A stretch of DNA of 13,112 bases from an uncultured Nitrososphaerales archaeon (GTDB taxonomy: Archaea > Thermoproteota > Nitrososphaeria > Nitrososphaerales > Nitrososphaeraceae): the NCBI GenBank assembly GCA_963709405.1, contig CAVPXM010000008.1, forward strand, positions 1 to 13,112, written 5' to 3'. The position numbers were made by a program, and so were the translations under genes. Below are positions 1-13,112 of the stretch, one piece after another. Under the pieces are notes generated by a model. That model ran no database searches. It had not been told where the DNA came from and saw only the letters and a list, made by a program, of their open reading frames with translations. How positions within the stretch are numbered: the first letter of the stretch is position 1; each line of letters begins with the position of its first letter.

Positions 1-33
1 ACATGAAATAGTACTTAATGTTGCTTAAAGTAT

Positions 34-333
34 ATGAAAGTGAGAATCTTTTTCTGTAATGAGCCTGATCCAGAAATCATTCTAAGAACTGACAGCCTTA
101 GCAGACAGGCTTTAGATACAATTTATGATTTAGTCTGGGAATGCGAGTTTAAGAATATACTTAACGTGGGTAGAATATGGATAAAGTTTAGACAAGAAGA
201 AAGACCATTTGGAATACCATTGAGGAAAAAGAGAAGTCATCATAAAATATCAATTGGCGACGTTATTCAACTTGCCAGTAATTTTTATATGGTCGATCAG
301 GTTGGCGCCAGACAAATTAGAATCATTGATTAA
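34..333 (+). CDS. Small hypothetical protein with YodL-like C-terminal motif
   Basis: 99-aa ORF. The C-terminal HKISIGDVIQL..FYMVDQVGARQI resembles the YodL-like consensus HSLSVxDVVxL..Y(Y/x)VDxxGFxxI, matched by eye. Confidence 0.55.
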   Translation: MKVRIFFCNEPDPEIILRTDSLSRQALDTIYDLVWECEFKNILNVGRIWIKFRQEERPFGIPLRKKRSHHKISIGDVIQLASNFYMVDQVGARQIRIID

Positions 334-566
334 GATCGCCATTAAATTTATCTATTTTATTATACGATTCTAATATAGTGGACAATTATTAAGATACCAG
401 AATTAAATCATAAGAAACAAGATCCACTGTACCGAACTCAGTTAACGTAAAGATATTTTAAAGTGACGTACGAATTGGTTTTATGTAATGCAATCTCTTT
501 CTTTGTATGCATGTTTTTATCCTATTACCAAAATTAAATCAAATTATATAGAATCGTACAAATAGG

Positions 567-573
567 AAAAAAA
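567..573 (-). terminator. Putative archaeal oligo-T terminator for the ccdA-thioredoxin transcript
   Basis: T7 run on the minus strand (A7 on plus, 567-573), 7 nt after the TGA stop at 581-583. Confidence 0.4.
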
Positions 574-580
574 TGTAGTC

Positions 581-1813
581 TCATCCGAATGTAAATGTAT
601 ACAACTGAAATCCTGTTCCTTCCACATTAATAATTATAGAATGTACTCCATAGCTATCATGCAAAGCCAGATTATACAATCTCTGTCCGTCCAATATGAA
701 TTTGCCATCTTTGTTTAAATCGGTACCAATTGACTTTGCTGAGATCTTTGCATTACCATCTTCAGTAACTATTCCAGTTTGACCTTTTCCTGACGCTACT
801 ATATTGATAGCCTTTGCATAATATGTTAGTATAATGCTTCCCCTATTACCTTGAAGTTCTATATTGTCACGATTGTTCTTCCATTGACCGTCTAAATATA
901 CAATATTAGGCTGTAAGTTGGTATTTGAAGGTATAGTGTATGTTACAATTTGTTCTGGCTCAAAGTTTTGAGGGTTTCCTAGAGGAGATCTTGCATAATT
1001 ATATCCTAGATATATTTCAGGGGTAGTTTGCTTTGATAAATCTATGTATTGAAGACTCTTTGAATCGATTGTGGGGGCTGTTTTTGTGCTAAAGCTTATT
1101 TGTTTGAAACCATCAAGGGCTGCTCTTTCTGCGAGCAGAGATTGAATTGTCTTCTCCGTCTCAGCATAACCTCCTTCACCTATGTGATCTTCTCTTATGT
1201 ATCCCTGTGCATCTATGAGGTAATGTCTTGGCCAATATTGGTTTCCATACGCATTCCACGTGCCAAGACTGTTATCTAACACAACAGGATACGTGATTCC
1301 AAACTTTTGAACTGCCGTTTTTACGTTGTCATAAATCTTTTCAAATTCAAACTCTGGTGAATGTACTCCAATTACTACAAATCCTTGGTCAGCATATTTT
1401 GCGTACCAGTCATTTAGATAAGGCACCGTTCTAATACAATTGATACAACTATATGTCCAAAAATCTACTAATACTACTTTGCCCTTATAATCTGCAAGAT
1501 GTATTGGTTGATTGTTGTTAGGAGTGTTGATATAACCAGCGATCTGAGCCAGATCGGGCGCTTTTTGAAACTGCGATTTATCAATATTCGTAAATTTACT
1601 TTTATCAAGAGTTATTGTTATCGTGTTTCCGCTCTTTGAGGTTGCTGCAGAAATGGTTTTCTCTATTTTTTGCTGCTGCATTAAAGATGAGGATTTGTTA
1701 AATGATGGATTGTTAAAATAGATAGCAAAACCCACGATTAAGGTCACAACAGCAACGGCCATTATCGCCGCACTAATGTTATCCTTATTTTTGAAAAAAG
1801 TCTGTTTTGTCAT
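581..1813 (-). CDS. Membrane-anchored redoxin/thioredoxin-like protein, homologous to the C-terminal half of DipZ (TlpA-like domain plus C-terminal beta domain)
   Basis: N-terminal TM helix (AAIMAVAVVTLIVGFAIYF). GKVVLVDFWTYSCINC (CxxC), GVHSPEFEFEK, YGNQYWPRHYLID, GEGGY, TPEIYLG and terminal FTFG are typical of the DipZ family. Lies directly downstream of ccdA. Confidence 0.9.
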   Translation of the reverse strand: MTKQTFFKNKDNISAAIMAVAVVTLIVGFAIYFNNPSFNKSSSLMQQQKIEKTISAATSKSGNTITITLDKSKFTNIDKSQFQKAPDLAQIAGYINTPNNNQPIHLADYKGKVVLVDFWTYSCINCIRTVPYLNDWYAKYADQGFVVIGVHSPEFEFEKIYDNVKTAVQKFGITYPVVLDNSLGTWNAYGNQYWPRHYLIDAQGYIREDHIGEGGYAETEKTIQSLLAERAALDGFKQISFSTKTAPTIDSKSLQYIDLSKQTTPEIYLGYNYARSPLGNPQNFEPEQIVTYTIPSNTNLQPNIVYLDGQWKNNRDNIELQGNRGSIILTYYAKAINIVASGKGQTGIVTEDGNAKISAKSIGTDLNKDGKFILDGQRLYNLALHDSYGVHSIIINVEGTGFQLYTFTFG

Positions 1814-1891
1814 ATTATTCTGAACTTCTCTCCAAATACACGTGCTGTAACCTATCTTTGATTGTGATCGATTGTATCCTCATCATCATAG

Positions 1892-2755
1892 TCATCCCTC
1901 TAATTTAATTAACTGATCTGCAAGTGGTATATTGGATAGCAATGTCAATTGATTTGTAAATAGCAGGATGCCGACTATTATCAATATACTGCCCATAACT
2001 AAATTAAAGTATTTCAAATGTTTTACCATTTTTCTGATTATTCCTGTAGCTTGAGAGAAAAACGCTCCAGTAATTAAAAATGGTATTCCTAAACCCATAG
2101 AATATGCTAATAATGAATTATATGCCGCTCCTGGTTGTGTGGCAGCTAATGCAAAGGTACTCCCTAATATAGGACCTACACATGGAGTCCATCCTGCTGC
2201 AAATGCAGCTCCAAATACGAATGACGTGATATAGCTTGTCTTAAATCTAGGTAATTTGGTCATCTTCTTTTCAAAGTTTAGGTTTCTTAGTTTTGTTGAA
2301 AGTATTAGATATGCTCCAAATCCTACAATTACGACTCCTCCAATGAATGTTAATGAGTGCTGAAAACCATTGGCCCCAACAGTTGATACAAGTACACTAT
2401 TTAGAATTACCCCTAGTACTGCAAATATCAAAGAAAAACCAAGGACGAAATAAACCGTATTAAGAAATATGTTAAGTCTGGTTCGTCTTCCAAGTGTTAG
2501 CGATGGTGATTTTACTGCACTACTCTTGGTAGTTGTTGCCGTAATTCTTGCGGTCCCTTCAATTCTATTTTCGTCAATATTTGCAATAGTAGGAGTAAGG
2601 TTATCGTTACCATTCGTTTCTAATCCTTTCACTTCATTAGCGGCTGAACCTGAGAGGTACGATATAAATCCAGGTAATATAGGAAGTATGCATGGAGAGA
2701 GAAATGATGCTAAACCAGCAGCTGCGGATACGATTATGTTTGCTTCATTTATCAT
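1892..2755 (-). CDS. ccdA: Cytochrome c biogenesis / DsbD-family transmembrane electron transporter CcdA
   Basis: Two conserved Pro-Cys motifs (AGLASFLSPCILP and FAAGWTPCVGPILG), YSMGLGIPF, about 6 TM segments, plus a long S/T/N-rich loop insertion after TM1. Confidence 0.92.
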   Translation of the reverse strand: MINEANIIVSAAAGLASFLSPCILPILPGFISYLSGSAANEVKGLETNGNDNLTPTIANIDENRIEGTARITATTTKSSAVKSPSLTLGRRTRLNIFLNTVYFVLGFSLIFAVLGVILNSVLVSTVGANGFQHSLTFIGGVVIVGFGAYLILSTKLRNLNFEKKMTKLPRFKTSYITSFVFGAAFAAGWTPCVGPILGSTFALAATQPGAAYNSLLAYSMGLGIPFLITGAFFSQATGIIRKMVKHLKYFNLVMGSILIIVGILLFTNQLTLLSNIPLADQLIKLEG

Positions 2756-3098
2756 TTCTACTTATTAATCAACTCCTGATATGATGATCTTAAACATAAA
2801 GAAACAACAACTGGCCTGATATCCATTGAAGTAAAATTAACTTTATTAATATTAATACTTATTTCCAATTTTGTTCCAAATCCCTTCCGGATGGTGATAG
2901 ATCAAATTGCACAACATCCTATCAAAATTATAAAAATGATCTAGATGTTAGATAATATATCAATGACACAATAAGTGAATGAGAACAAAGTAAAATACGG
3001 AGAAGATAATGAAAGTCCGGATCAGTTATTAAAACTCAATCTTGATAAGTATTACAGGAGAATTTCTTGATGCGACATAGAAAATATTTCATTTCCAT

Positions 3099-3185
3099 TT
3101 ACTTTTCTGCTTTTAATAATGAATAGGTCAAGGCAGTTGAAGATACAACAATAAACGAGATGAATATGACAAGAACTGAATCCAA
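3099..3185 (-). CDS. kdpF: KdpF-like single-TM small subunit of the Kdp K+-ATPase (28 aa, MDSVLVIFISFIVVSSTALTYSLLKAEK)
   Basis: Not in the ORF track; read manually. TTG start at 3185, 8 nt after a strong SD (GGAGGTGA) overlapping the kdpC stop. One hydrophobic helix ending in YSLLKAEK, similar to the KdpF tail Y(A/S)LxxxE(K/R/A)F. KdpF-like length. Confidence 0.7.
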   Translation of the reverse strand: MDSVLVIFISFIVVSSTALTYSLLKAEK

Positions 3186-3193
3186 TAATCAGA

Positions 3194-3201
3194 TCACCTC
3201 C
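3194..3201 (-). promoter_or_regulatory. Shine-Dalgarno site GGAGGTGA for the kdpF-like ORF (overlaps kdpC stop)
   Basis: Plus strand tcacctcc at 3194-3201; 8-nt spacer to the TTG at 3185. Confidence 0.7.
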
Positions 3202-3748
3202 GTTGCAACTTACTTAAGAATTCTTGGTAATGCTCAGGGTACTGTTTCATCAATTCAAGATTCACTTCCAACACATTGACATATTGTGGAGCAAAGAACA
3301 AACCATTGGTTATTTTATTTCTTTCTATATTAAGTTGAATCAATGTTTCTAGAACGTTTTGCGATATTCCAGTTGCTTTACTTACATTAGAAACTTGTGC
3401 AAAAGCGTTTTCAGGAGTAATATCCGGATCTACTGTTGACGCTGAATCTGCCGAAGGTCGTGAATGAAAGAATTTTGCAGATTTAAATTCTTGAGCAATC
3501 AGTTTTGATCCTACAATTTTCCCATCTAGGGTAAGAAGGCTGCCAGTAGATTGGTATGGCAATGTATATTCTCCTATCAACACTAAGACAATGGGATATG
3601 CTATACCAGTTATTAAGATCATTAATAGTACAACTCTTAGCGACGGCCGTATATTTTGAGCAAATAATTCTTTTAGTGAAGATCCAGTCGCAATTTGAGT
3701 TAGTAGGTGCTTAATCATACCACCATCATCTTTAGTACTTTTTGTCAT
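3194..3748 (-). CDS. kdpC: K+-transporting ATPase subunit C (compact form)
   Basis: N-terminal TM with ITGIAYP, PYQSTGSL, GSKLIAQEF, FHSRPSA, DPDITPENAFAQV, YVNVLEVNLEL; follows kdpB. Confidence 0.93.
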   Translation of the reverse strand: MTKSTKDDGGMIKHLLTQIATGSSLKELFAQNIRPSLRVVLLMILITGIAYPIVLVLIGEYTLPYQSTGSLLTLDGKIVGSKLIAQEFKSAKFFHSRPSADSASTVDPDITPENAFAQVSNVSKATGISQNVLETLIQLNIERNKITNGLFFAPQYVNVLEVNLELMKQYPEHYQEFLSKLQRR

Positions 3749-3757
3749 ATCGCTCGC

Positions 3758-3764
3758 TCACCTC
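3758..3764 (-). promoter_or_regulatory. Shine-Dalgarno site GAGGTGA for kdpC
   Basis: Plus strand tcacctc at 3758-3764, 9 nt before the kdpC ATG at 3748. Confidence 0.7.
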
Positions 3765-6148
3765 ATCTCATAAACGTAGATAGAATCATATCAATTGCCT
3801 TTATGCCCACAAATGGTAAAGCAGCTCCACCTAAACCATAAATTAACATATTTCTAATAAATGTCTTTTGTGGCGGTTCAGCTTTGAACTTGACTCCTCG
3901 TAATGATAATGGGATAAGAGCTGGTATGATTATTGCATTAAATATCAGAGTTGAAAGTATTGCTGTTTCAGGACTGTGAAGATGCATTATATTTAGGATT
4001 TGCAATTTGGGATTATTGCTCGCTGCAAACATAGCTGGAAGAATTGCAAAGTATTTGGCGGCATCATTAGCAATGCTAAATGTGGTAATGGCACCACGTG
4101 TCATAAGCAGCTGTTTACCTAGTTTTACGACTTTCATTATATTGGAAGGGTCAGAGTCCAAGTCAACCATATTTGGCAGCTTCTTTAGCTGCTTGCGGTT
4201 CCACTATTCATTGCTAGTCCTACATCAGCTTTGGCAAGTGCCGGAGCATCATTCGTTCCATCCCCTACCATTCCAATAACATGTCCTTTCAATTGCTCTT
4301 GTTCAACTCTGATTAGTTTGTCTGTTGGTTTTGCTTCTGCTATTACTTCATCAACATCGGCTTCTTTGGCAATAACTTGAGCTGTCAATTGATTATCTCC
4401 TGTAATCATTACCGTGGTTATGCCAGTAGCTACGAACTTCATTTAGCTTTTCTCGTATATTCTCTTTTAAATTATCTTTAAGAACTACAAGACCAATTAC
4501 TTCATTATTTATAGACACAGCTAATGGTGTTGCACCATTCTTGGATACTTCTTGTGCTTTCCATTTTATTTCCGCCTGATTTACATTCGGTCCTGCTAAA
4601 TCAATTATCATATCTATCGCACCTTTAAGAATCTTTACTTCGCTTTTTGTTTCTTCTAATTTTAGAAGCAGATCATGGACTCTACTTTTACTAGCACGAT
4701 CGACATCTCTTTCAATTTCTTCTATCGTTGGATTAACTGCTGCCTGTTCCGGCCTCGTCAGTGCTGCTAACAGCCTTACTACTACTACCACCTATAAAAC
4801 CTCTTGCTAATGATCTGAATTCTTCTTCTTGTTCCTTATTTAGTATTGCTTCTTTACTTGCAATAAATTCAATACCACTACATCTAGTTTCAGCTGTAAA
4901 TTCGATAGATCTAGCTGGTATTACTTTCTCCAAAAGTGGTGGAACAAATTTCTTCTCTTCTGCAAGATCGACTATTGACTTACCTTCATGTGTAGTATCA
5001 TGAATAGATGCTGCAAAAGCTGCTTGTCCTACATCTTTTTCAGTGTATTCACTCATAGGTATGAATTCTACAGCACTTCTACTACCTTCTGTAATTGTTC
5101 CAGTTTTATCTAATATCAAAACATCACAATCTCCAGCAGCTTCGATTCCTTTGCCAGATTTTGCTACAATGCTGTCCCTTCCTAATCTCGTTATGCCAGC
5201 AACACCTATTGCTGGGAGTAAAGCTCCGATTGTTGTTGGCATCAGTGCGACCAATAGAGCTACCTGTGTAGCAATATCAGCCTTAAGTCCAAGAAAATCT
5301 GTAAAGAATAAAAGTGTTCCAATTACCATTATGAAAATTAAAGATAATCCTGCAAGTAACATTGATAAAGCAATTTCATTTTTGGTCTTTGGTCTTGTTG
5401 AACTCTGTATCAGACTAATCATCTCATCTAGAAAGCTTCTACCAGCCTCAGAGGTAATTTCTACCACTAACTTGTCACTTGCTACTCTGGTCCCACCTAT
5501 TACATGATCACCTTCTTCTTTGAACACAGGATTTGATTCTCCTGTCATCATTGATTCGTCCACGAATGCTTTGCCATCATTTACAAGACCATCTCTCGGT
5601 ATTATTTCACCAACATATACCATTACTTCGTCTCCTGGTTTAAGGCTAGTCGATGTTACCGTGACCTCTTTCTCATTATGTACCATCTTGTGTGCTGATA
5701 CTTCTTTTTCTAAACTACGAAGCGAGTCCACTCTTGCCCTAGCTTGGGCTTCAGATAATGATTCTGAAAATGTAGCAAACCATACAGTCAAAATCAGTAT
5801 TATAGCCGTTTGAAAATACAGAGCATTACTTTGATTTACAAATTCTATTGATATATTAGCAGGAAGTAATGCTATGGCAAGGACTACGATAAATCCCACT
5901 TCTACTGTGAACATGACTGGATTATTTTTTGCTAAATAACGTGGATCAAGTTTAGTTATAGAATCTATAATTACTCTTTTATTTATCCAACCTAATGCAC
6001 TCTTGATTTTATGACCAGCATGACTATTCCCATTACCATTATTGTTACTGATAGTACGATTGTTATTGTCATTACCCAAAATAGCACTATCTTTATTTTT
6101 TTCGTTAGCTTGGTTCATTCTCATTTTAATATTTTCAAATATCTTCAT
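3763..6148 (-). CDS. kdpB: K+-transporting P-type ATPase subunit B, split into four ORFs by four +1 indels (probably sequence errors; pseudogene not excluded)
   Basis: Fragments 4733-6157, 4393-4791, 4185-4442 and 3763-4170 carry, in order, [47 protein letters not shown] and [13 protein letters not shown]. Removing single bases near 4735, 4431, 4193 and 4172 gives one ~793-aa frame. Start placed at ATG 6148 because of SD spacing; the track uses 6157. Confidence 0.93.
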
Positions 6149-6158
6149 TACTATCATA

Positions 6159-6164
6159 TCACCT
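6159..6164 (-). promoter_or_regulatory. Shine-Dalgarno site AGGTGA for kdpB
   Basis: Plus strand tcacct at 6159-6164, immediately after the kdpA stop and 10 nt before ATG 6148. Confidence 0.6.
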
Positions 6165-6165
6165 A

Positions 6166-7806
6166 CTAAAGTGAAAATGGTCCTATCACTATAAATGGGA
6201 AGAAAGTAAGCGCTGTAAGAAGAAAAGTTACTACTACCAGTACTGTGATGAATACCGGGCCTTGTGTTTTTATTGGTTCAACGACTTCTCTCCTATCTTT
6301 TTCTGTGAATGAACCTGCGATTGCTAGCATTAGTCCCATTGGAAGAAATCTACCAATAAAAATTACTATTGCAGTTGATATATTCCAAAATGGGGTATTT
6401 GCTGAAGTACCAAAATAATCAGAACCATTGTTAGCTGCGGCTGATGCATATTCGTACAATGTCTGAGTAAATCCCATAGGTGTTATATGATGTCCTGTTC
6501 CACCTGTTCCTCCCATAATAGCCTGAGTACTTCCAGTTGCAAATGCAATTACTGCTGGAATTAATATTATTGCAGGGTGACTCAAAAATACGAATACTAC
6601 TAATTTTACATCTCTTGGACTAATCTTCATACTTAAAAATTCTGGTGTTTTGCCCACCATCAGACCAACTACAAAAAGTGTTAAAATAACATACATAATC
6701 ATGTATGTTATTCCTACTCCAACTGCACCTGGAATTGATTGAACAAACATGGCAAGAAGGAAAGATATTATTGCATTTGGTGACATCCCCAAAAGTGAAG
6801 AATTCACCGCTCCTGTATTTGTGGAAATAGAGGCTGTATTAAATAGTGTGGTCCCAAAATTTCCAAATCTAGTTTCTAATAATGATGGTCCGCTTATTGC
6901 TGAGAAGGCTATTATAAGCAGGGCGCCAAATGAAATAAGTATAGCGATCAAAATTGATATGCCTCTCCATTTACCTATGAGTTTAGCATACGCAATTGGA
7001 AACGACAATGGAATTACAAGCATCAAAAATATTTCATACATATTTGAAAGGCCTGTAGGATTTTCAAATGGATGAGCAGAATTCGCGCCATAAAATCCTC
7101 CACCATTGCTGCCAAGTTGCTTTATAGCTAGCATAGAGGCTACGGGGCCAACTCTGATATCCTGCTTGTTTCCTTCCAAAGTATTTGCAGTTACTGTAGT
7201 ATTAAGAGTTTGTGGGAGTCCAGTTACCATAAGCACTACAGATGAAATCACTGCTACAGGAAGTAATAGTGTTACTATTACTCTTATAAAATCTACATAG
7301 AAATTTCCTAGACCAAAATTCTTTCTAATAAATGATCGGATTAAAGCAAAAGCAGCTACAATTCCAGAGGCAGGAGCAACAAACTGGGTAAATGTAAGGG
7401 CAATCATTTGTGATAAATTGGAAAGTTGTTGATCTCCTGCATAATGCTGCAGGTTAGTATCTGTTACAAATGAAATTGCCGTATTAAAAGCCAAATCTAA
7501 TGATAGTCCCTTGAAGTTTTGGTGCGACGGTAAATAATTCTGTAGTGTTAGAACTAAAATAATGAAAACCGCAACTATCATGTTTGTTAGAAACAGAGCA
7601 AAAAAGTACTGCTTCCAGGTCATCTGCTTGGATGCATCAATTCCAATTACTTTATAGAACCCACTCTCCACCTTGGCAAGTGTCTTTTCTAACGGTCTCA
7701 TTTCGAAGGAAATCATTCTGGCAATATAGAGCCCAAAAGGAATTGCCATACCTAATGTTCCTACCAATACAACAGCTAACTCTATTATTGTGTCCACATA
7801 GGTCAC
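6166..7806 (-). CDS. kdpA: K+-transporting ATPase subunit A (K+-binding SKT-family subunit)
   Basis: 546 aa with MTWKQY, AFNTAISFVTDTNLQHY, GNFYVD, GPVAS..AIKQLGSNGGGFYGANSAHPFENP, ETRFG, GAVNS, GLMVGKTPE, LYEYASAAANNGS, GRF and ALTFFP. GTG start. Confidence 0.96.
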   Translation of the reverse strand: MTYVDTIIELAVVLVGTLGMAIPFGLYIARMISFEMRPLEKTLAKVESGFYKVIGIDASKQMTWKQYFFALFLTNMIVAVFIILVLTLQNYLPSHQNFKGLSLDLAFNTAISFVTDTNLQHYAGDQQLSNLSQMIALTFTQFVAPASGIVAAFALIRSFIRKNFGLGNFYVDFIRVIVTLLLPVAVISSVVLMVTGLPQTLNTTVTANTLEGNKQDIRVGPVASMLAIKQLGSNGGGFYGANSAHPFENPTGLSNMYEIFLMLVIPLSFPIAYAKLIGKWRGISILIAILISFGALLIIAFSAISGPSLLETRFGNFGTTLFNTASISTNTGAVNSSLLGMSPNAIISFLLAMFVQSIPGAVGVGITYMIMYVILTLFVVGLMVGKTPEFLSMKISPRDVKLVVFVFLSHPAIILIPAVIAFATGSTQAIMGGTGGTGHHITPMGFTQTLYEYASAAANNGSDYFGTSANTPFWNISTAIVIFIGRFLPMGLMLAIAGSFTEKDRREVVEPIKTQGPVFITVLVVVTFLLTALTFFPFIVIGPFSL

Positions 7807-8384
7807 TCACTATTCGATTTGATTATCTTAGCACGACATCATTATCCGCAAATAAAAATCTTATGGTTAGCTTCATTTATTTTATCGAATGAATCTAATA
7901 AAATAATTTTAAACATTTCCATATAGACTAGAAAATCCATATTATAAAAAATATAATATTAAAAATTATCTCAATATCTATTATATTAAATATCTAATTT
8001 ATTTTAAATTAATAGCAAACTTGTAAAATATATGCTTCATGATTGAAAATGAATCTGGATTGGCATTACTGTTTTCAAATAGATCGATTATTATTGCTAC
8101 ATTAGCACCTTACCCGTCATGAGATCGATATTAAAGATTTAAATACTAATTTAGGAATTTTCCGGGGTAAGTATTATTTAGCCATGGTAGCCTGCCTACA
8201 ACATCGTACTCCAATTCTTTATAATTATACGAGTAATGTGAATTATTCAGATTTTTCACATTTTCCTGCAATTTACTTAAAGACCTTCATTTCGCCTTGT
8301 TATGCTATACAATACTTCGTTACTACGGTAAAATATAAATAGTCGTCTATTGTAGACGCTTAACAAATTGAGTGACCTATGTGG
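7794..8384. repeat. Perfect 16-bp inverted repeat (TGAGTGACCTATGTGG) at 7794-7809 (minus) and 8369-8384 (plus), each copy containing a GTG start codon
   Basis: ccacataggtcactca at 7794-7809 is the reverse complement of tgagtgacctatgtgg at 8369-8384. A further imperfect match (24/30 nt) lies between 7719-7748 and 8433-8462. Confidence 0.9.
8326..8341 (+). promoter_or_regulatory. Putative archaeal BRE/TATA promoter for the plus-strand cluster
   Basis: A purine-rich stretch followed by TATAAATA (8334-8341), about 30 nt before GTG 8372, consistent with a near-leaderless transcript. The AT-rich background lowers specificity. Confidence 0.45.
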
Positions 8385-8719
8385 TAACAACATTAAAAGA
8401 TGTAGGCGTTATCATAATGGGAATAATTGTATTGGCAATCCTTTTTGGACCGTATGTTGCCAATTCAATATCCATCGTAAATAAAACATGTAAAAGGCTA
8501 ACGAGAAAACTTAAGGTTAGTTGTGATATACTTCGCAGAAACATCAAAGGATCAAATAAGCGCAAATCAGATCATAGTTTGATATCAATAGCTTTCATTC
8601 CTGTCTGTGAAATTATCAGTATATTTATACTCATGAATTTGCCTGGTATACATATCCTTACATTTTCATTATTAAGAATACCATTGCTCTTGCATAAGGA
8701 AATGATAATAGCATTATGA
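8372..8719 (+). CDS. Small membrane protein; diverged paralogue of the KdpA N-terminus (no pore/selectivity filter)
   Basis: MTYVVTTLKDVGVIIMGIIVLAILFGPYVANSISI aligns with KdpA MTYV-DTIIELAVVLVGTLGMAIPFGLYIARMISF (15/35 identical), followed by a basic loop and a second hydrophobic segment. The stop overlaps the next start (ATGA). Confidence 0.65.
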   Translation: MTYVVTTLKDVGVIIMGIIVLAILFGPYVANSISIVNKTCKRLTRKLKVSCDILRRNIKGSNKRKSDHSLISIAFIPVCEIISIFILMNLPGIHILTFSLLRIPLLLHKEMIIAL

Positions 8720-9379
8720 TGAAAAAAGACGATATAGCTATCCTGAGTAAGAACACAACACAAGAAATAATATCGGACAAAATTAATGCATTAGGCACGA
8801 GACTACAGCTCACAGACAAGGTAATTCATAAAATCGAGTATATCTATGATAAAGCTAAGGAAGTAGGACTAGTTCGGGGAAGGGGTTCTTATATCAGTAC
8901 TTGCAGCTGCTGCATATGTAGCTTGTAGACAATTAGGAGTAACAAAAACAATGACTGATTTTACATCAATATTACATGTAGGACGAAAGCAGCTATCAAG
9001 GAATTATAGATTACTCATTAACAAACTCTCTCTCAAGATACCAAATAATGATCCTTTCATACTTCTTGATCAGTTGGCAAACAAATGCAATGTTGGAGAG
9101 GAAACAAAACGTCAAGCAAATATACTTATGAACTATTCATTACGAAATGATTTTCATGTTGGAAAGAATCCAATGTCGATAGTTGGTTCAGTACTTTACA
9201 TTGCGTGTGCCACTACATTAGAAAATCGTAGTCAAACAGCCGTTGCTAAGGCAGCGGGGATAACTAGTGTCACTCTTGGGAGTAGAATCAAGGATTTAAA
9301 AGAATTGCTTTGCAGTAGCAATAACAATAATAGAGCCTTATCGGATGGATATCAGCAGAACATCTTTAGTATCATTTAA
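8716..9379 (+). CDS. tfb: Transcription factor B (TFB/TFIIB) core-only paralogue, two cyclin repeats, with one +1 indel in G4 at 8882-8885
   Basis: ORFs 8716-8928 and 8951-9379 join after removing one G: ...GLVRGRVLISVLAAAAYVACRQLG...GKNPMSIVGSVLYIAC...SQTAVAKAAGITSVTLGSRIKDL (~220 aa). No N-terminal CxxC..CxxC Zn ribbon. Confidence 0.85.
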
Positions 9380-9397
9380 TGGATCTGGATCATTGAA

Positions 9398-9967
9398 TTG
9401 AAGTCAGGCGATACTGTTGTGAATTATCAACTAATTGATGACATCAATCTTAAAATTATTGATATTTTAAATAAAGATGCTTCAACATCATTTGTTGATA
9501 TAGCAAAACGAATAGGTGTATCAGATGCAACTGTGCATATTAGAGTTAGAAGAATGATTGCAGCAGGTATAATCAACAAATTTACAATATCTGTAGATAA
9601 TGACCTTCTAGGATATGATCACCTGGCATTTATGGGAGTAAATATTTCGCCTGGTTCTGCAGATCAGATCATATCAGATCTATTAAGAGTTGAGGAAGTT
9701 TTAGAAATGCATGAATTGCATGGTAAATTTGATCTATTGCTAAAGATACGTGCTAAGAATTTAAATCAGATGAGAGATATAGTAGAGAATAAGATTTGTA
9801 AAATCCCTCATATTTTTAAAATAGAGTTAATGACTGTACTAAAAACAAAAAAGGAAGAACAAACTGTATCTCTTGAGAAGGATATTGAATATAATGACAT
9901 GCTACATTTAAATGAGGATCACTTAAAATCATCATCATTTTCTAACTTGTCACTTATCAGGGGTTAA
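9398..9967 (+). CDS. Lrp/AsnC family transcriptional regulator
   Basis: IDDINLKIIDILNKDASTSFVDIAKRIGVSDATVHIRVRRMIAAGII HTH plus a RAM domain (ELHGKFDLLLKI). The true start may be GTG 9419, after AGGCGA. Confidence 0.93.
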   Translation: MKSGDTVVNYQLIDDINLKIIDILNKDASTSFVDIAKRIGVSDATVHIRVRRMIAAGIINKFTISVDNDLLGYDHLAFMGVNISPGSADQIISDLLRVEEVLEMHELHGKFDLLLKIRAKNLNQMRDIVENKICKIPHIFKIELMTVLKTKKEEQTVSLEKDIEYNDMLHLNEDHLKSSSFSNLSLIRG

Positions 9968-9972
9968 ATTAT

Positions 9973-10551
9973 TTGAATTTAGACGGGCAAGAGACTGTTA
10001 ATGAATTTGATCTCTTAAAGAATGTCATTGGCCTATCAAAGGTGACAATAGATAGGGCAAAATCTGTCGTCAGAGAAGCTAATAGAAGGAAGCTAATAAG
10101 AGGAAGGACTGCTTCAACACTAGTAACTTCAGCAGTATATAATCCATGTAGAGAAACAAACACACTACAGACTTTGCCTGATATTGCTGCAATACTTAAT
10201 GTGAAGCGAAAGAGATTAGGAAAGTGGTCTAGAATGCTAATGAATAGTCTTGACCTTAAAGTTCCTACAATTGATCCATTTGAATATATGATGAGACTAT
10301 CTGACATGATTAATGTTAACGAAAAGGTAAAACGCCTTGCAATAGATATATTGAATGATATTATCATCAAGGAGATACCTGCAGGAATAAATCCTATGGC
10401 TGTTGCAACATCCGTACTTTATATCTACTGTAAAAAGTCCGGACATCATACTACCCAACGCAATATCGCTAAAGCAGCTGGCATAACGGAAGTAACACTA
10501 AGAAATAGATTCACAGAACTTGAGAAGAAGAAGGTGTTGTATTTAAATTAA
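9973..10551 (+). CDS. tfb: Second TFB/TFIIB core-only paralogue (192 aa)
   Basis: LIRGRTASTLVTSAVYNPCRE, GINPMAVATSVLYIYC and the canonical C-terminal HTH TQRNIAKAAGITEVTLRNRFTEL. An in-frame stop at 9943-9945 precludes an N-terminal Zn ribbon. Confidence 0.88.
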   Translation: MNLDGQETVNEFDLLKNVIGLSKVTIDRAKSVVREANRRKLIRGRTASTLVTSAVYNPCRETNTLQTLPDIAAILNVKRKRLGKWSRMLMNSLDLKVPTIDPFEYMMRLSDMINVNEKVKRLAIDILNDIIIKEIPAGINPMAVATSVLYIYCKKSGHHTTQRNIAKAAGITEVTLRNRFTELEKKKVLYLN

Positions 10552-11291
10552 TGCAATTATTGGCAATAGTCACATTACATGATGCATGTCCTGCTTTTTC
10601 CTCAAGAACATTTGAGATTACTGAACAGCTTGAAAAACTGGAAGTAAGATATAATATTGGCCTTGTACCTTTCTTTAACGGAGAACAAGACCTCCCGAGG
10701 TTTCCTAAATTTGTAAAACAAATCGAGTGCTGTAGCGCAGAGATCGCTTTACATGGTCTTTATCATGAAAACAAGAGGCATCAGATTGATGACTTTAGTA
10801 CAAGGACGAAAGCATATGCAGAGCAAGAGATACGAGCAGGACTCCAAATATTCCAACAGGTTGGACTCTATCCGACTATATTTATTCCTCCGTGCTGGAA
10901 ATTAAACATTGATTCGATTGGAGTCTTGAGTAAACTCAGATTTAGACTAACAGAGATGCAGGAGCGATTAGTATTGCTATTTAAGAGAACATTTAGGAAA
11001 ATACGTGTTCCAAAAGTCCTGAACTGGGATTCTTGTGGAGACCCAGAAAAGAATATTGCAAATATTGATATAAACAGAAGACATTTCAAAATCTTAATCC
11101 AGGAAAAAGCAGAAATAATTAGAATTGCACTGCATCCTAGAGATCCACGTATTGCGTTTAGAGATCAAATGAATATGATATTGCAGTTGAAGGAACAAGG
11201 GTATCAATTCCTAACATACAGTGAACTTGTATCTAAATTTTCTATTTCTCATACTAGTGCTACAAGAAAGATCAACTTAACTTCCTTATAG
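10551..11291 (+). CDS. Polysaccharide deacetylase-like protein (CE4/NodB superfamily, DUF2334-type)
   Basis: TLHDACP, EIALHGLYH, FIPPCW and RIALHPRD motifs. Start overlaps the tfb stop (TAATG). Confidence 0.85.
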   Translation: MQLLAIVTLHDACPAFSSRTFEITEQLEKLEVRYNIGLVPFFNGEQDLPRFPKFVKQIECCSAEIALHGLYHENKRHQIDDFSTRTKAYAEQEIRAGLQIFQQVGLYPTIFIPPCWKLNIDSIGVLSKLRFRLTEMQERLVLLFKRTFRKIRVPKVLNWDSCGDPEKNIANIDINRRHFKILIQEKAEIIRIALHPRDPRIAFRDQMNMILQLKEQGYQFLTYSELVSKFSISHTSATRKINLTSL

Positions 11292-11388
11292 CCATTTTTA
11301 TGATAGATACATGTTCACCATCTTCAGGGTGTTAAGTCTCATGGCAACCTCTTCTTCAGAATCTGCCGTATGAGTTGGGGTAAGATAT

Positions 11389-12993
11389 TTGGAAATACTT
11401 GCAGCATTTATTCAATCATTAATCCAGACTAAATCAGCATTTTTTATTACAAATAACCTTTTGCTTCCACTCGTATTAATAATATTGAATGCACTATGGA
11501 TTTATTTATTTGCCATATCCCTGAGAAATTACTATCGTACTCCATCCATCGATCACAATCGGCAAGCCAAATCATCATCAACATGCAACAATTTGAATCA
11601 GATTAACATTAAAGATCGTTGTGGTGATACTGAATTACCATTTGTAAGTATAATAGTACCTGCCAGGAACGAGCAAAATCATATTGCAAGATGTCTGACG
11701 TCTTTACTCAGCCAAGATTATCCTAACTTTGAGATAATTGCAGTAAACGACAATTCTACTGATAACACCCTTAAAATCATGCATGAAATACAAAAGGGTT
11801 ATCTCTGCGAGGGTACAGGATCTCTATCTCAACAACGGCAAAAACTAGAATTCACCAATGGAAATTCTAATATTTTTTCCATTAATTCAAATACTTTAAC
11901 TTCAGTTAATGGTAATAGAAGAAGAAGAAGAACTGACGATGCAACTGTAACTGTATCGTTAGGAGAAAAAGATTTCATGCCAATTAGCGGCAATAATAAT
12001 AATAAAAATAGTCGCGAGAAACTAAGAATAATATCACTAAAAGATAAACCAAAAGGCTGGACTGGTAAGAGTTGGGCCTCACAACAAGGCTATATTTGTA
12101 GCAAAGGAGACATTTTGATTTTTACTGATGCAGATACTTGTTATATCAATAAGGATACTATCATATCATCTATCTCTTATTTCAAGAAAGAAAATCTAGA
12201 TGTACTTACGGGTTTTCCTTTCGTTGAGCTACGAGATTTCTGGTCAAAGATGGTAAATCCAGTCTGGAATCTAATTGGTACCCTTTTCGGATATAGTGCA
12301 TTCGATATTAACAATCCTGAATCTAAGGCGGCTAGTCTCATGGGTTGCTTCATTGCAATAAAAAGAAAAGTCTTTGAAGATATCGGGACCTATAAAGTGA
12401 TCCGTAGTAATATCAGAGAAGATGAAGCACTTGGAATAAGAACAAAAGAAGTGGGCTATAAAATTGGAGGCGTGCAAATGGATAAAAGCTTAACTGCTTT
12501 ATGGTCTAGCGACCTCCTTACGTTGTGGCATGGTATAGCGAGAACAATAGTGCCAGCACTTCTTAATACGAACGGAAAGAAGAAGAGAAAAGTGATTCGT
12601 AATCTATTGGTTATATTTCTTATGACCTTATTCCCTTTTATTTTGCTTCCATACAGTTTTGGTATCGCGAGAGTTCCAGACTCAAACCCAACATTATATA
12701 ATTATAGGGTTGATAATTCAAACTTTATACTGGATCAATCATCTAAACTCTTGGACCAAATACATTTCATGATACTATTGTTGAATTTATCTGCATGTAT
12801 TGGATTGTTTGCTGGATCGAGTGCGAAAGCATGGAGATTCAAGATCTCCCTTGTTTATGCTATTATCTCACCATTTGGAGCTGCATTTCTTGTTGTTGCT
12901 TACGTTACCAATATTATATTGTCTTTAATGATACAGATTAAAAAAAATGGACAGTCGGTAGTATGGCGAGATAGACAATATCTGCTTAGATAG
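11389..12993 (+). CDS. Membrane-bound family 2 glycosyltransferase (HpnB/CrtQ-like architecture)
   Basis: N-terminal TM, VSIIVPARNE, NDNSTDNT, PKGWTGK, FTDADT (DxD), GCFIAIKR, IREDEALG and three C-terminal TM segments. Confidence 0.9.
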   Translation: MEILAAFIQSLIQTKSAFFITNNLLLPLVLIILNALWIYLFAISLRNYYRTPSIDHNRQAKSSSTCNNLNQINIKDRCGDTELPFVSIIVPARNEQNHIARCLTSLLSQDYPNFEIIAVNDNSTDNTLKIMHEIQKGYLCEGTGSLSQQRQKLEFTNGNSNIFSINSNTLTSVNGNRRRRRTDDATVTVSLGEKDFMPISGNNNNKNSREKLRIISLKDKPKGWTGKSWASQQGYICSKGDILIFTDADTCYINKDTIISSISYFKKENLDVLTGFPFVELRDFWSKMVNPVWNLIGTLFGYSAFDINNPESKAASLMGCFIAIKRKVFEDIGTYKVIRSNIREDEALGIRTKEVGYKIGGVQMDKSLTALWSSDLLTLWHGIARTIVPALLNTNGKKKRKVIRNLLVIFLMTLFPFILLPYSFGIARVPDSNPTLYNYRVDNSNFILDQSSKLLDQIHFMILLLNLSACIGLFAGSSAKAWRFKISLVYAIISPFGAAFLVVAYVTNIILSLMIQIKKNGQSVVWRDRQYLLR

Positions 12994-13112
12994 GTAGATC
13001 TAATGCTTTTATTGTACTCCTAAAACTTTCCTATAAGGTATAGACACGATACATACATGGTTAATTAATCCTTTAATGTTCTCTTTACTTGTAAATTAAC
13101 ATATAGATTAGA

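Follow-up and report, generated by a model that had tools for sequence, protein, structure and literature searches.

A rare cassette of a small membrane protein and core-only TFBs lies divergent from kdpABC in an uncultured Nitrososphaerales archaeon

Bacterial KdpFABC, a P-type ATPase that takes up K+, is under the control of KdpD and KdpE. Genes for kdpABC are present in several Nitrososphaerales (PMC7603488), and in N. viennensis both kdpA and kdpB respond to growth conditions, increasing when cells are grown on floating filters (PMC11561398); the passages of these two papers that concern the genes name no kdp regulator. Here, we describe a 13,112-bp stretch of DNA (the window, meaning the whole stretch analysed) from an uncultured, soil ammonia-oxidising Nitrososphaerales archaeon, which is the entire contig C8 of a 4.83-Mb genome assembly (G000; 100 contigs, 91% complete, 3.7% contaminated). 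It carries kdpA, kdpB, and kdpC in the usual order and with family-level Pfam matches, as in the bacterial system, from which it differs in that no kdpF was recognised and that G000 has no match to KdpD, DUF4118, or the OmpR-type output domain. Divergent from kdpA is a cassette that codes for a small membrane protein, two paralogs of transcription factor B (TFB) reduced to the core, and an Lrp/AsnC-family regulator.

The components of this cassette recall several described systems. Sulfolobus TFB3 is an archaeal TFB paralog that serves as an alternative or accessory initiation factor (PMC6101594). Bacterial extracytoplasmic function (ECF) sigma factors and their membrane anti-sigma factors likewise pair a small membrane protein with a promoter-recognition factor as an overlapping gene pair, but there is no homology to the cassette, whose factor is without the polymerase-recruiting part, so that freeing it would lead to repression or competition instead of activation, and binding between the partners is hypothetical. 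The window TFBs are similar to TFB3-type paralogs in being extra TFB-family genes diverged from the general factor, although TFB3 keeps the N-terminal polymerase-contacting part and is without the core, whereas the window TFBs are core only, the reverse architecture. A full-text literature search found no paper on natural core-only TFBs, as judged from the result listings. The Lrp protein has the full helix-turn-helix and ligand-binding architecture of archaeal Lrp/AsnC regulators (feast/famine regulatory proteins), but the genome encodes at least seven near-copies, this one included, and Lrp is a cassette member in genus g1 only. The kdp genes, the small membrane open reading frame (ORF), and the TFB genes are as follows.

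3194..3748, minus strand: kdpC; Pfam KdpC PF02669, E 2.1e-36, with full-length matches in relatives
3763..6157, minus strand: kdpB; Pfam E1-E2_ATPase and HAD matches on its four pieces
6166..7806, minus strand: kdpA, 546 amino acids (aa); Pfam KdpA PF03814, E 5.9e-173, profile positions 2-544 of 548
8372..8719, plus strand: small membrane ORF (miniA), 115 aa, probable start GTG 8381; no Pfam family
8716..9379, plus strand: core-only TFB type 1 (TFB1); TFIIB repeats on both of its pieces, intact form 227 aa
9973..10551, plus strand: core-only TFB type 2 (TFB2), 192 aa; two TFIIB repeats, no zinc ribbon, 5-nt gap after the Lrp gene

The reading that we favour, although only modestly, is of an ordinary kdpABC operon for a high-affinity K+ pump beside a rare accessory cassette that is kept next to kdpA largely by descent and whose effect on kdp is optional. 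The small-ORF/TFB pair is genuinely linked to kdpA, and regulation of kdp by the cassette is possible, if unproven. The core of the cassette would be the translationally coupled small membrane protein and core-only TFB, usually followed by genes for a DUF2334 protein and a family-2 glycosyltransferase (GT2), with the Lrp gene apparently added in genus g1 and both TFB subfamilies present in G000.

The description of both TFBs as atypical in the first-pass annotation is borne out by alignment to the canonical 290- and 296-aa TFBs of G002, a genome of the same genus, since both lack the N-terminal third and begin at about residue 105-115 of the canonical proteins (about 115 for TFB2), with a stop codon just upstream of each start. 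The B-reader and B-linker are missing from both, and both cyclin repeats and, apparently, the C-terminal helix-turn-helix are retained; the cyclin-like repeat profile PF00382 matches TFB2 in two stretches, as it does the intact TFB1 ortholog, and precomputed domains of homologs of both types consist of PF00382 only. There is no match to the zinc ribbon PF08271 in the window TFBs, a profile that the canonical paralog itself matches weakly, at E 4.3e-4 and 20.2 bits, where the curated cut-off is 29 bits. In the helix-turn-helix that would read the B recognition element (BRE), motif AAGITEVTLRNR is retained in TFB2, and type 1 of genus g1 has VTLANR or VTLASR instead of VT(I/V)RNR, the arginine of which would have a role in BRE reading. 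A protein collection contains an intact 227-aa protein (P0007) that is near-identical to the two TFB1 pieces, and genomes of this genus have between 7 and 16 TFB-like matches each.

Each type is a family in its own right. There are 15 type-1 clusters, 14 of them 210-230 aa long and one 256 aa, which are 48-94% identical to the G065 ortholog, and about 20 type-2 clusters of 181-189 aa, nearly all 189 aa, which are 49-58% identical to the window TFB2 (52-58% for the related 189-aa family). The search of family genomes for type 2 used a 189-aa TFB; at a loose threshold it gave mostly canonical TFBs and was useful only for contig G051:C757, and it was repeated more strictly. A tree of 60 rows (quick search, support by SH-aLRT, the approximate likelihood ratio test, only, midpoint root) has type 1 (12 rows) as a clade with support of 100 and type 2 (13 rows) as a clade with support of 98, each on a long stem branch. 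Because a branch with support of 93 separates the two types jointly from all other rows, a single origin of core-only TFBs, with two sister subfamilies, is favoured.

The small ORF was initially taken to be a KdpA-derived membrane protein, a description that does not hold as given. Its start element is that of kdpA (see below), and a profile comparison aligns its residues 1-47 to KdpA 1-46 (46 columns, probability 66%, E 5.7e-5), amounting to about 45 weakly similar residues, but there is no Pfam KdpA match, BLASTP against KdpA is insignificant, and a PF03814 search of G000 has the true kdpA as its sole match. The frame is open in all copies in relatives, with lengths of 113-124 aa, or 75 aa in lineage B. 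Its stop codon overlaps the start codon of TFB1 (ATGA, 8716), and a prediction of a complex between the type-1 TFB and the small membrane protein scored 0.00, which we count neither way. Scanning 185,579 species genomes for the small ORF returned the G065 record alone; the window's own genome possibly lies outside that scan.

The cassette is rare. Among sampled genomes of the family, kdpA is present in 35 of 101 (12 of 18 genera), the small ORF in 2 of 101, and the type-2 TFB in 3 of 238 (G000, G051, and G126), tallies that count three unpublished genomes as scored, with no positive from them; in all, the small-ORF/TFB pair was found in four genomes among those searched. Of 18 kdp loci fetched from relatives, only two G065 contigs have the cluster, and no TFB or Lrp gene stands beside kdp in G002 and G044, which are of the same genus, or at 14 loci of other genera. 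Similarly, 63 scanned ORFs, out of 84 candidate flanking ORFs from 15 loci, gave no TFIIB or AsnC match. The flanks of kdp are very variable, with a histidine kinase, a K+ channel, a TrkH-CBS protein, and a CBS protein seen once each.

Where a core-only TFB is found, its small-ORF partner is nearly always present. The small membrane ORF, with the same start element, lies directly upstream of the TFB, overlapping it or separated by at most 8 nt, at every locus but two, the exceptions being the window TFB2 and its partial copy on contig C73, both of which follow an Lrp gene. This includes all four type-1 metagenome loci (L087, L088, L089, and L125, out of 72 loci returned) and all four type-2 loci of genus g16 (L162 and L181-L183). 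Eight contigs reach far enough upstream to be informative on adjacency to kdpA, and in seven (the window, G065:C493, G065:C421, L087, L125, L182, and L162), spanning genus g1, genus g16, and one metagenomic lineage, the small-ORF/TFB pair is divergent from kdpA; in the eighth, a G126 copy (L181), other genes fill 2.9 kb and kdpA does not adjoin the pair. Lineage B has three genes between kdpA and the pair and no common promoter region there. Alignment of G002 with L087 runs through kdpB, kdpA, the kdpA promoter, and then the small-ORF promoter as far as a degenerate remnant of the small-ORF start, and resumes 3.8 kb further on at the next gene, so that the cassette is precisely present or absent. 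The proposal that the adjacency is more than chance is thus upheld by these contigs. Across kdpA neighbourhoods, the arrangement is kept in G065 and in L087, L125, L182, and L162 but is missing from 16 of the 18 kdp loci of relatives.

The region between the divergent genes contains conserved blocks and a duplicated start element.

7807..8371: shared intergenic region, 565 nt, with conserved blocks in alignments
7795..7808, minus strand: kdpA start element GAGTGACCTATGTG (Shine-Dalgarno-like GAGTGA, 5-nt spacer, GTG), one arm of inverted repeat I1
8370..8383, plus strand: small-ORF start element, a second exact copy of the 14-mer GAGTGACCTATGTG
7850-7859: TATA-like AAATAAAAAT, on the kdpA side
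8330-8341: AAAATATAAATA, on the small-ORF side
8344-8358: palindrome or hairpin CGTCTATTGTAGACG

The kdpA and small-ORF start sites are joined by an inverted repeat of 27 nt (85%), and the exact 14-mer occurs twice in the 4.83-Mb genome, at these two genes. Sites with one or two mismatches number nine, against about 23 expected, and six of the nine run directly into stop codons. Of 21 starts of kdpA and the small ORF examined in three lineages, 19 have an exact 12-mer, GTGACCTATGTG, with adjacent codons diverged, and the 12-mer is found at none of 15 kdpA starts of other genera. Translation of kdpA probably begins at the GTG at 7797, which is codon 4 of the ORF as listed, because at least 6 of the 15 other-genus loci have a stop codon within three codons before the equivalent GTG or TTG. 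These stop codons in the first three codons also lead us to read GAGTGACCTATGTG as a putative translation-start element (a Shine-Dalgarno-like GAGTGA, a spacer, and a GTG start) rather than a peptide, and the shared 'MTYV' is probably not protein coding. The kdpA-proximal promoter block (CATAAGGTTTTTATT ... AATAGTGAGTGACCTATGTGG) is common to genomes with and without the cassette, the latter including G002 and G044. An Rfam scan of the window with E up to 0.1 matched no family, and no known riboswitch explains the leader; a sigma-70 promoter scan is meaningless for an archaeon and was set aside, with the hairpin at 8344-8358 alone retained from it.

Several other observations concern this region. 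Contigs from a soil RNA library (run X19, oligo-dT) extend from kdpC through kdpA and 333 nt upstream, the 5' part of kdpA and this upstream stretch being spanned at 6863-8139, and at 8410-8887 they run from the small ORF into the first TFB, with 8162-8355 uncovered; such contigs are no evidence of transcription, and we draw no conclusion from them. At two g16 cassette loci (L182 418-570 and L162 568-723), an ORF of 50-51 aa opens with the same start element (MTYVETI or MTYVDTI) and ends exactly at the start of the g16-type kdpA (MNSIAEL...), which looks as if the 5' end of a g1-type kdpA had been grafted before kdpA. A membrane-anchored, multi-copy family beginning MDTAII..., with no Pfam match, is encoded repeatedly around the cassette. 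The start region of the family (GGGACCTGGTTGGACAC) is similar to the kdpA start region (GTGACCTATGTGGACAC), and its sites are as follows.

L087 6630-7169: MDTAII... family
L125 395-1885: MDTAII... family
L089 582-1376: MDTAII... family
G000:C73:2340-3032: MDTAII... family
G000:C61:98835-99515: MDTAII... family
L031 3194-3739: MDTAII... family

With regard to kdp regulators, Pfam searches recognise no KdpD, KdpE, or universal stress protein (USP) domain within the window, in agreement with the initial observation that none stands alongside kdp. Genome-wide, KdpD (PF02702) and DUF4118 (PF13493) have no match in G000, although control genomes matched, and neither does the OmpR-type winged-helix output domain of KdpE (PF00486); parts of KdpD/KdpE were thus not found in the genome, which at 91% completeness is short of proven absence. 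Among the kdp loci examined, only one has a two-component part alongside, a HisKA/HATPase_c sensor kinase gene directly upstream of and co-oriented with one of the two kdp operons of G073 (L039, G073:C4, 6832-8811).

These results bear on whether the cassette is a dedicated, KdpDE-independent switch, in which K+ or turgor would be sensed by the membrane protein, the core-only TFB would be bound or set free by it in the manner of an anti-sigma factor, and the TFB and Lrp would gate the kdp promoter and the glycan genes together. The genome without KdpD/KdpE parts leaves room for such a switch, the pair is divergent from kdpA in all but one of the informative contigs, the start element shared by kdpA and the small ORF is identical, occurs nowhere else in the genome, and is conserved even at synonymous sites, and the overlap of stop and start codons implies that the membrane protein and the TFB are made together. 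However, most kdp-bearing relatives do without the cassette, G002 and G044 have the same kdpA-proximal promoter but no cassette, three genes intervene in lineage B, one G126 copy lies away from kdpA, and one G065 copy (C421) has lost its TFB with kdpABC intact. On balance, we consider a dedicated switch unlikely, and the original designation of the locus as a dedicated kdp control module does not hold up against the disparity between kdpA and small-ORF prevalence, the G002 promoter, the G065 loss, and the multi-copy nature of Lrp. Because the cassette is missing at 16 of 18 loci in relatives, G002 has the same promoter, and a decayed copy stands beside an intact kdpABC, kdp by these comparisons does without it.

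The accessory-cassette reading that we prefer would have the cassette arise once beside kdpA, probably by inverted duplication of the kdpA start, because the small-ORF start region is an inverted copy of that of kdpA and the TFB subfamilies are sister clades. The core-only TFBs would bind TATA-binding protein (TBP)-promoter complexes but would not recruit RNA polymerase, acting as promoter-occupying competitors, and their first targets, shared with Lrp, would be the cassette operon itself and the downstream DUF2334/GT2 envelope-glycan genes. N-terminally deleted TFBs are reported to bind TBP-DNA still and to fail to recruit RNA polymerase in vitro. Some points weigh against this reading. The linkage to kdpA has survived reshuffling of everything else around kdp, and the conservation of the start element exceeds that from descent alone, which hints at a shared control site and hence at co-regulation with kdp. 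The tree branch with 93% support is unstarred and comes from a quick method with an arbitrary root, and TBP/DNA binding, repression, and expression of the cassette genes are all predictions only. The strongest hint for kdp control is the conservation of the start element, and the strongest argument against it is that nearly all relatives have kdp with the same promoter and without the cassette.

The remaining plus-strand genes of the cluster are as follows.

9398..9967, plus strand: Lrp/AsnC-family regulator; HTH_AsnC-type PF13404, E 7.7e-13, and AsnC_trans_reg PF01037, E 2.5e-13
10551..11291, plus strand: DUF2334 protein; Pfam DUF2334, E 5.1e-19, 1-nt overlap with TFB2
11389..12993, plus strand: GT2; Pfam Glycos_transf_2, E 2.3e-24

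The cluster is divergent and tightly packed, as first described, being a plus-strand array with the ATGA overlap, a 5-nt gap, and a 1-nt overlap. A DUF2334 gene follows a core-only TFB in L087, L182, and L162, whereas L181 has only a truncated remnant of 58 aa, and GT2 lies downstream of the cassette in L087 (as fragments) and L182. The six other genomic Lrp copies are 75-95% identical (aa) and several are beside insertion sequence (IS) fragments. Window positions 9268-10311 (the end of TFB1, Lrp, and the first half of TFB2) are repeated on contig C73, where TFB2 is cut after residue 114, loose ends fall at exactly 9268 and 9433 in independent contigs, and contig C61 has an Lrp fragment and a GT2 fragment near 100 kb. 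In G065:C421 (L033), the TFB and half of Lrp are deleted, such that the first 14 TFB codons are fused to the C-terminal half of Lrp. The same contig has an IS-like element of three transposase-like ORF pieces (12537-13614) inserted in the Lrp gene.

A mosaic of this kind, with the IS insertion and the loose ends, could suggest that the cassette is functionless debris of rearrangement, composed of a 5' fragment of kdpA and two truncated TFB pseudogenes derived from segmental duplications. We regard this as very unlikely, since the frames are open and of conserved length across many 90%-identity clusters, the overlap architecture is kept in two genera, both TFB types are well-supported clades with internal diversification, and the ratios of nonsynonymous to synonymous substitution rates (dN/dS) are well below 1. 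Comparison of the window genes with the G065 copies gave dN/dS values of 0.38-0.53 (small ORF), 0.22-0.44 (type-1 TFB, in which the 54-codon N-terminal piece alone is above 0.32), 0.15-0.29 (Lrp), and 0.06-0.14 (KdpA). Because dN/dS is below 1, lengths are conserved across clusters, and the clades are supported, the cassette is, on comparative grounds, real and under selection.

The kdp operon was initially described as complete and as kdpABC(F). The kdpA and kdpC genes are present, but kdpB as assembled is in four ORFs in three frames (4733-6157, 4393-4791, 4185-4442, and 3763-4170), and no kdpF was recognised, with no hydrophobic ORF of at least 20 aa seen upstream of kdpA, a weak negative given that KdpF is tiny and no model-based search was made. 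In G002 and G065, kdpB is intact as a single open frame of 803 and 798 codons, respectively, relative to which the window has a 3n+1 excess at about 4751-4760, within the break at about 4743-4760, and single extra bases at about 4431, 4194, and 4176. TFB1 as assembled is likewise in two pieces (8716-8928 and 8951-9379), with extra bases near 8895 and 9347. Contig C8 is itself redundant: positions 1-5734 duplicate the end of C18 (G000:C18:32604-38335, 99.0% identity), and positions 10200-13112 duplicate the end of C61 (G000:C61:107512-110422, 99.2% identity), with differences at 55 and 22 places (77 in total), including 17 indels. C8 thus forms a redundant bridge between C18 and C61, and the three contigs represent a single locus, with a single kdp operon in the genome rather than two. 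In the C18 copy, kdpB is without the insertion at 4430 but is broken elsewhere, for example at 4957.

Contigs assembled from four public runs of four studies, 90-99% like the window, provide an independent check. For kdpB, the extra base is omitted at 4172/4175, 4193, and 4743/4746 in four of four runs each and at 4430 in two of four; for TFB1, the base at 8895 is omitted in all three covering runs and that at 9347 in three runs. Split genes are also common elsewhere in G000. From 84 ORFs of at least 250 aa at 21 G002 loci, 75 matched G000 and 42 had an ortholog with at least 70% identity; 24 of the 42 had single full-length matches and 18 were flagged, and 10, with 13 junctions, are by our judgement split across frames. 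By our reading of their sequence contexts, 9 of the 17 indels between duplicate contigs are at AGCT or GCWGC. Indel examples at AGCT or GCAGC/GCTGC are at 1124, 1675, 2721, 3825, 4430, 10477, 11403, and 12486, and many substitutions cluster there too. The pattern suggests a systematic long-read basecalling error at a modified motif, perhaps linked to methylation. GCWGC alone as the cause of every frame break was ruled out, as the motif is at only 2 of the 13 junctions outside the window.

That kdpB is a true pseudogene, in a kdp operon undergoing decay and next to a cluster with no bearing on K+ uptake in this organism, is therefore most improbable. Four frame breaks in 2.4 kb of kdpB, the sharing of the break at about 4743-4760 with the C18 copy, and a break near the 4194 site in kdpB of G044 would fit decay, but the independent contigs of the four studies are without the extra bases, the two assembly copies disagree at 4430 and 4957, about a quarter of the long genes tested are split in the same manner, and the indel contexts look systematic. 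Given the noisy assembly, the redundancy of C8, and the independent contigs, we attribute the broken frames of kdpB and of the first TFB to consensus errors, and kdpABC is probably intact in the organism. The G044 kdpB (L032, G044:C12, 11533-13915) is frame-broken within the same 10-nt stretch as window position 4194, in an assembly that comprises about 4.9 Mb in some 90 contigs, which suggests the same kind of consensus error. In practice, single-base indels are frequent in this assembly, many of them at AGCT/GCWGC, and apparent pseudogenes in it are not to be trusted. In this genus, KdpB carries an N-terminal extension of low complexity, rich in N and G (window 5990-6157), and its nucleotide-binding domain has a variable Ser/Gly-rich insert (window 4740-4800) that differs in length between close relatives. 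Besides kdpCBA, the minus strand of the window carries a thioredoxin-like gene and a DsbD-like gene.

The locus bears on how kdp is controlled in archaea without KdpDE and on the use of the many TFB paralogs in Nitrososphaeraceae. As a further conjecture, which we think decidedly unlikely, the monophyletic core-only TFBs and the coupled membrane protein could be an archaeal anti-sigma/sigma-like switch that works by promoter occlusion, with the 14-nt element placing kdp and the cassette under one K+ or turgor signal, through which some soil ammonia oxidisers would couple the remodelling of envelope glycans to K+ uptake. The pairing of a TFB with a membrane protein suggests a signal input from the envelope. 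A conserved TFB that binds the promoter and TBP without recruiting polymerase would, if true, be a simple new mode of repression for archaeal promoters.

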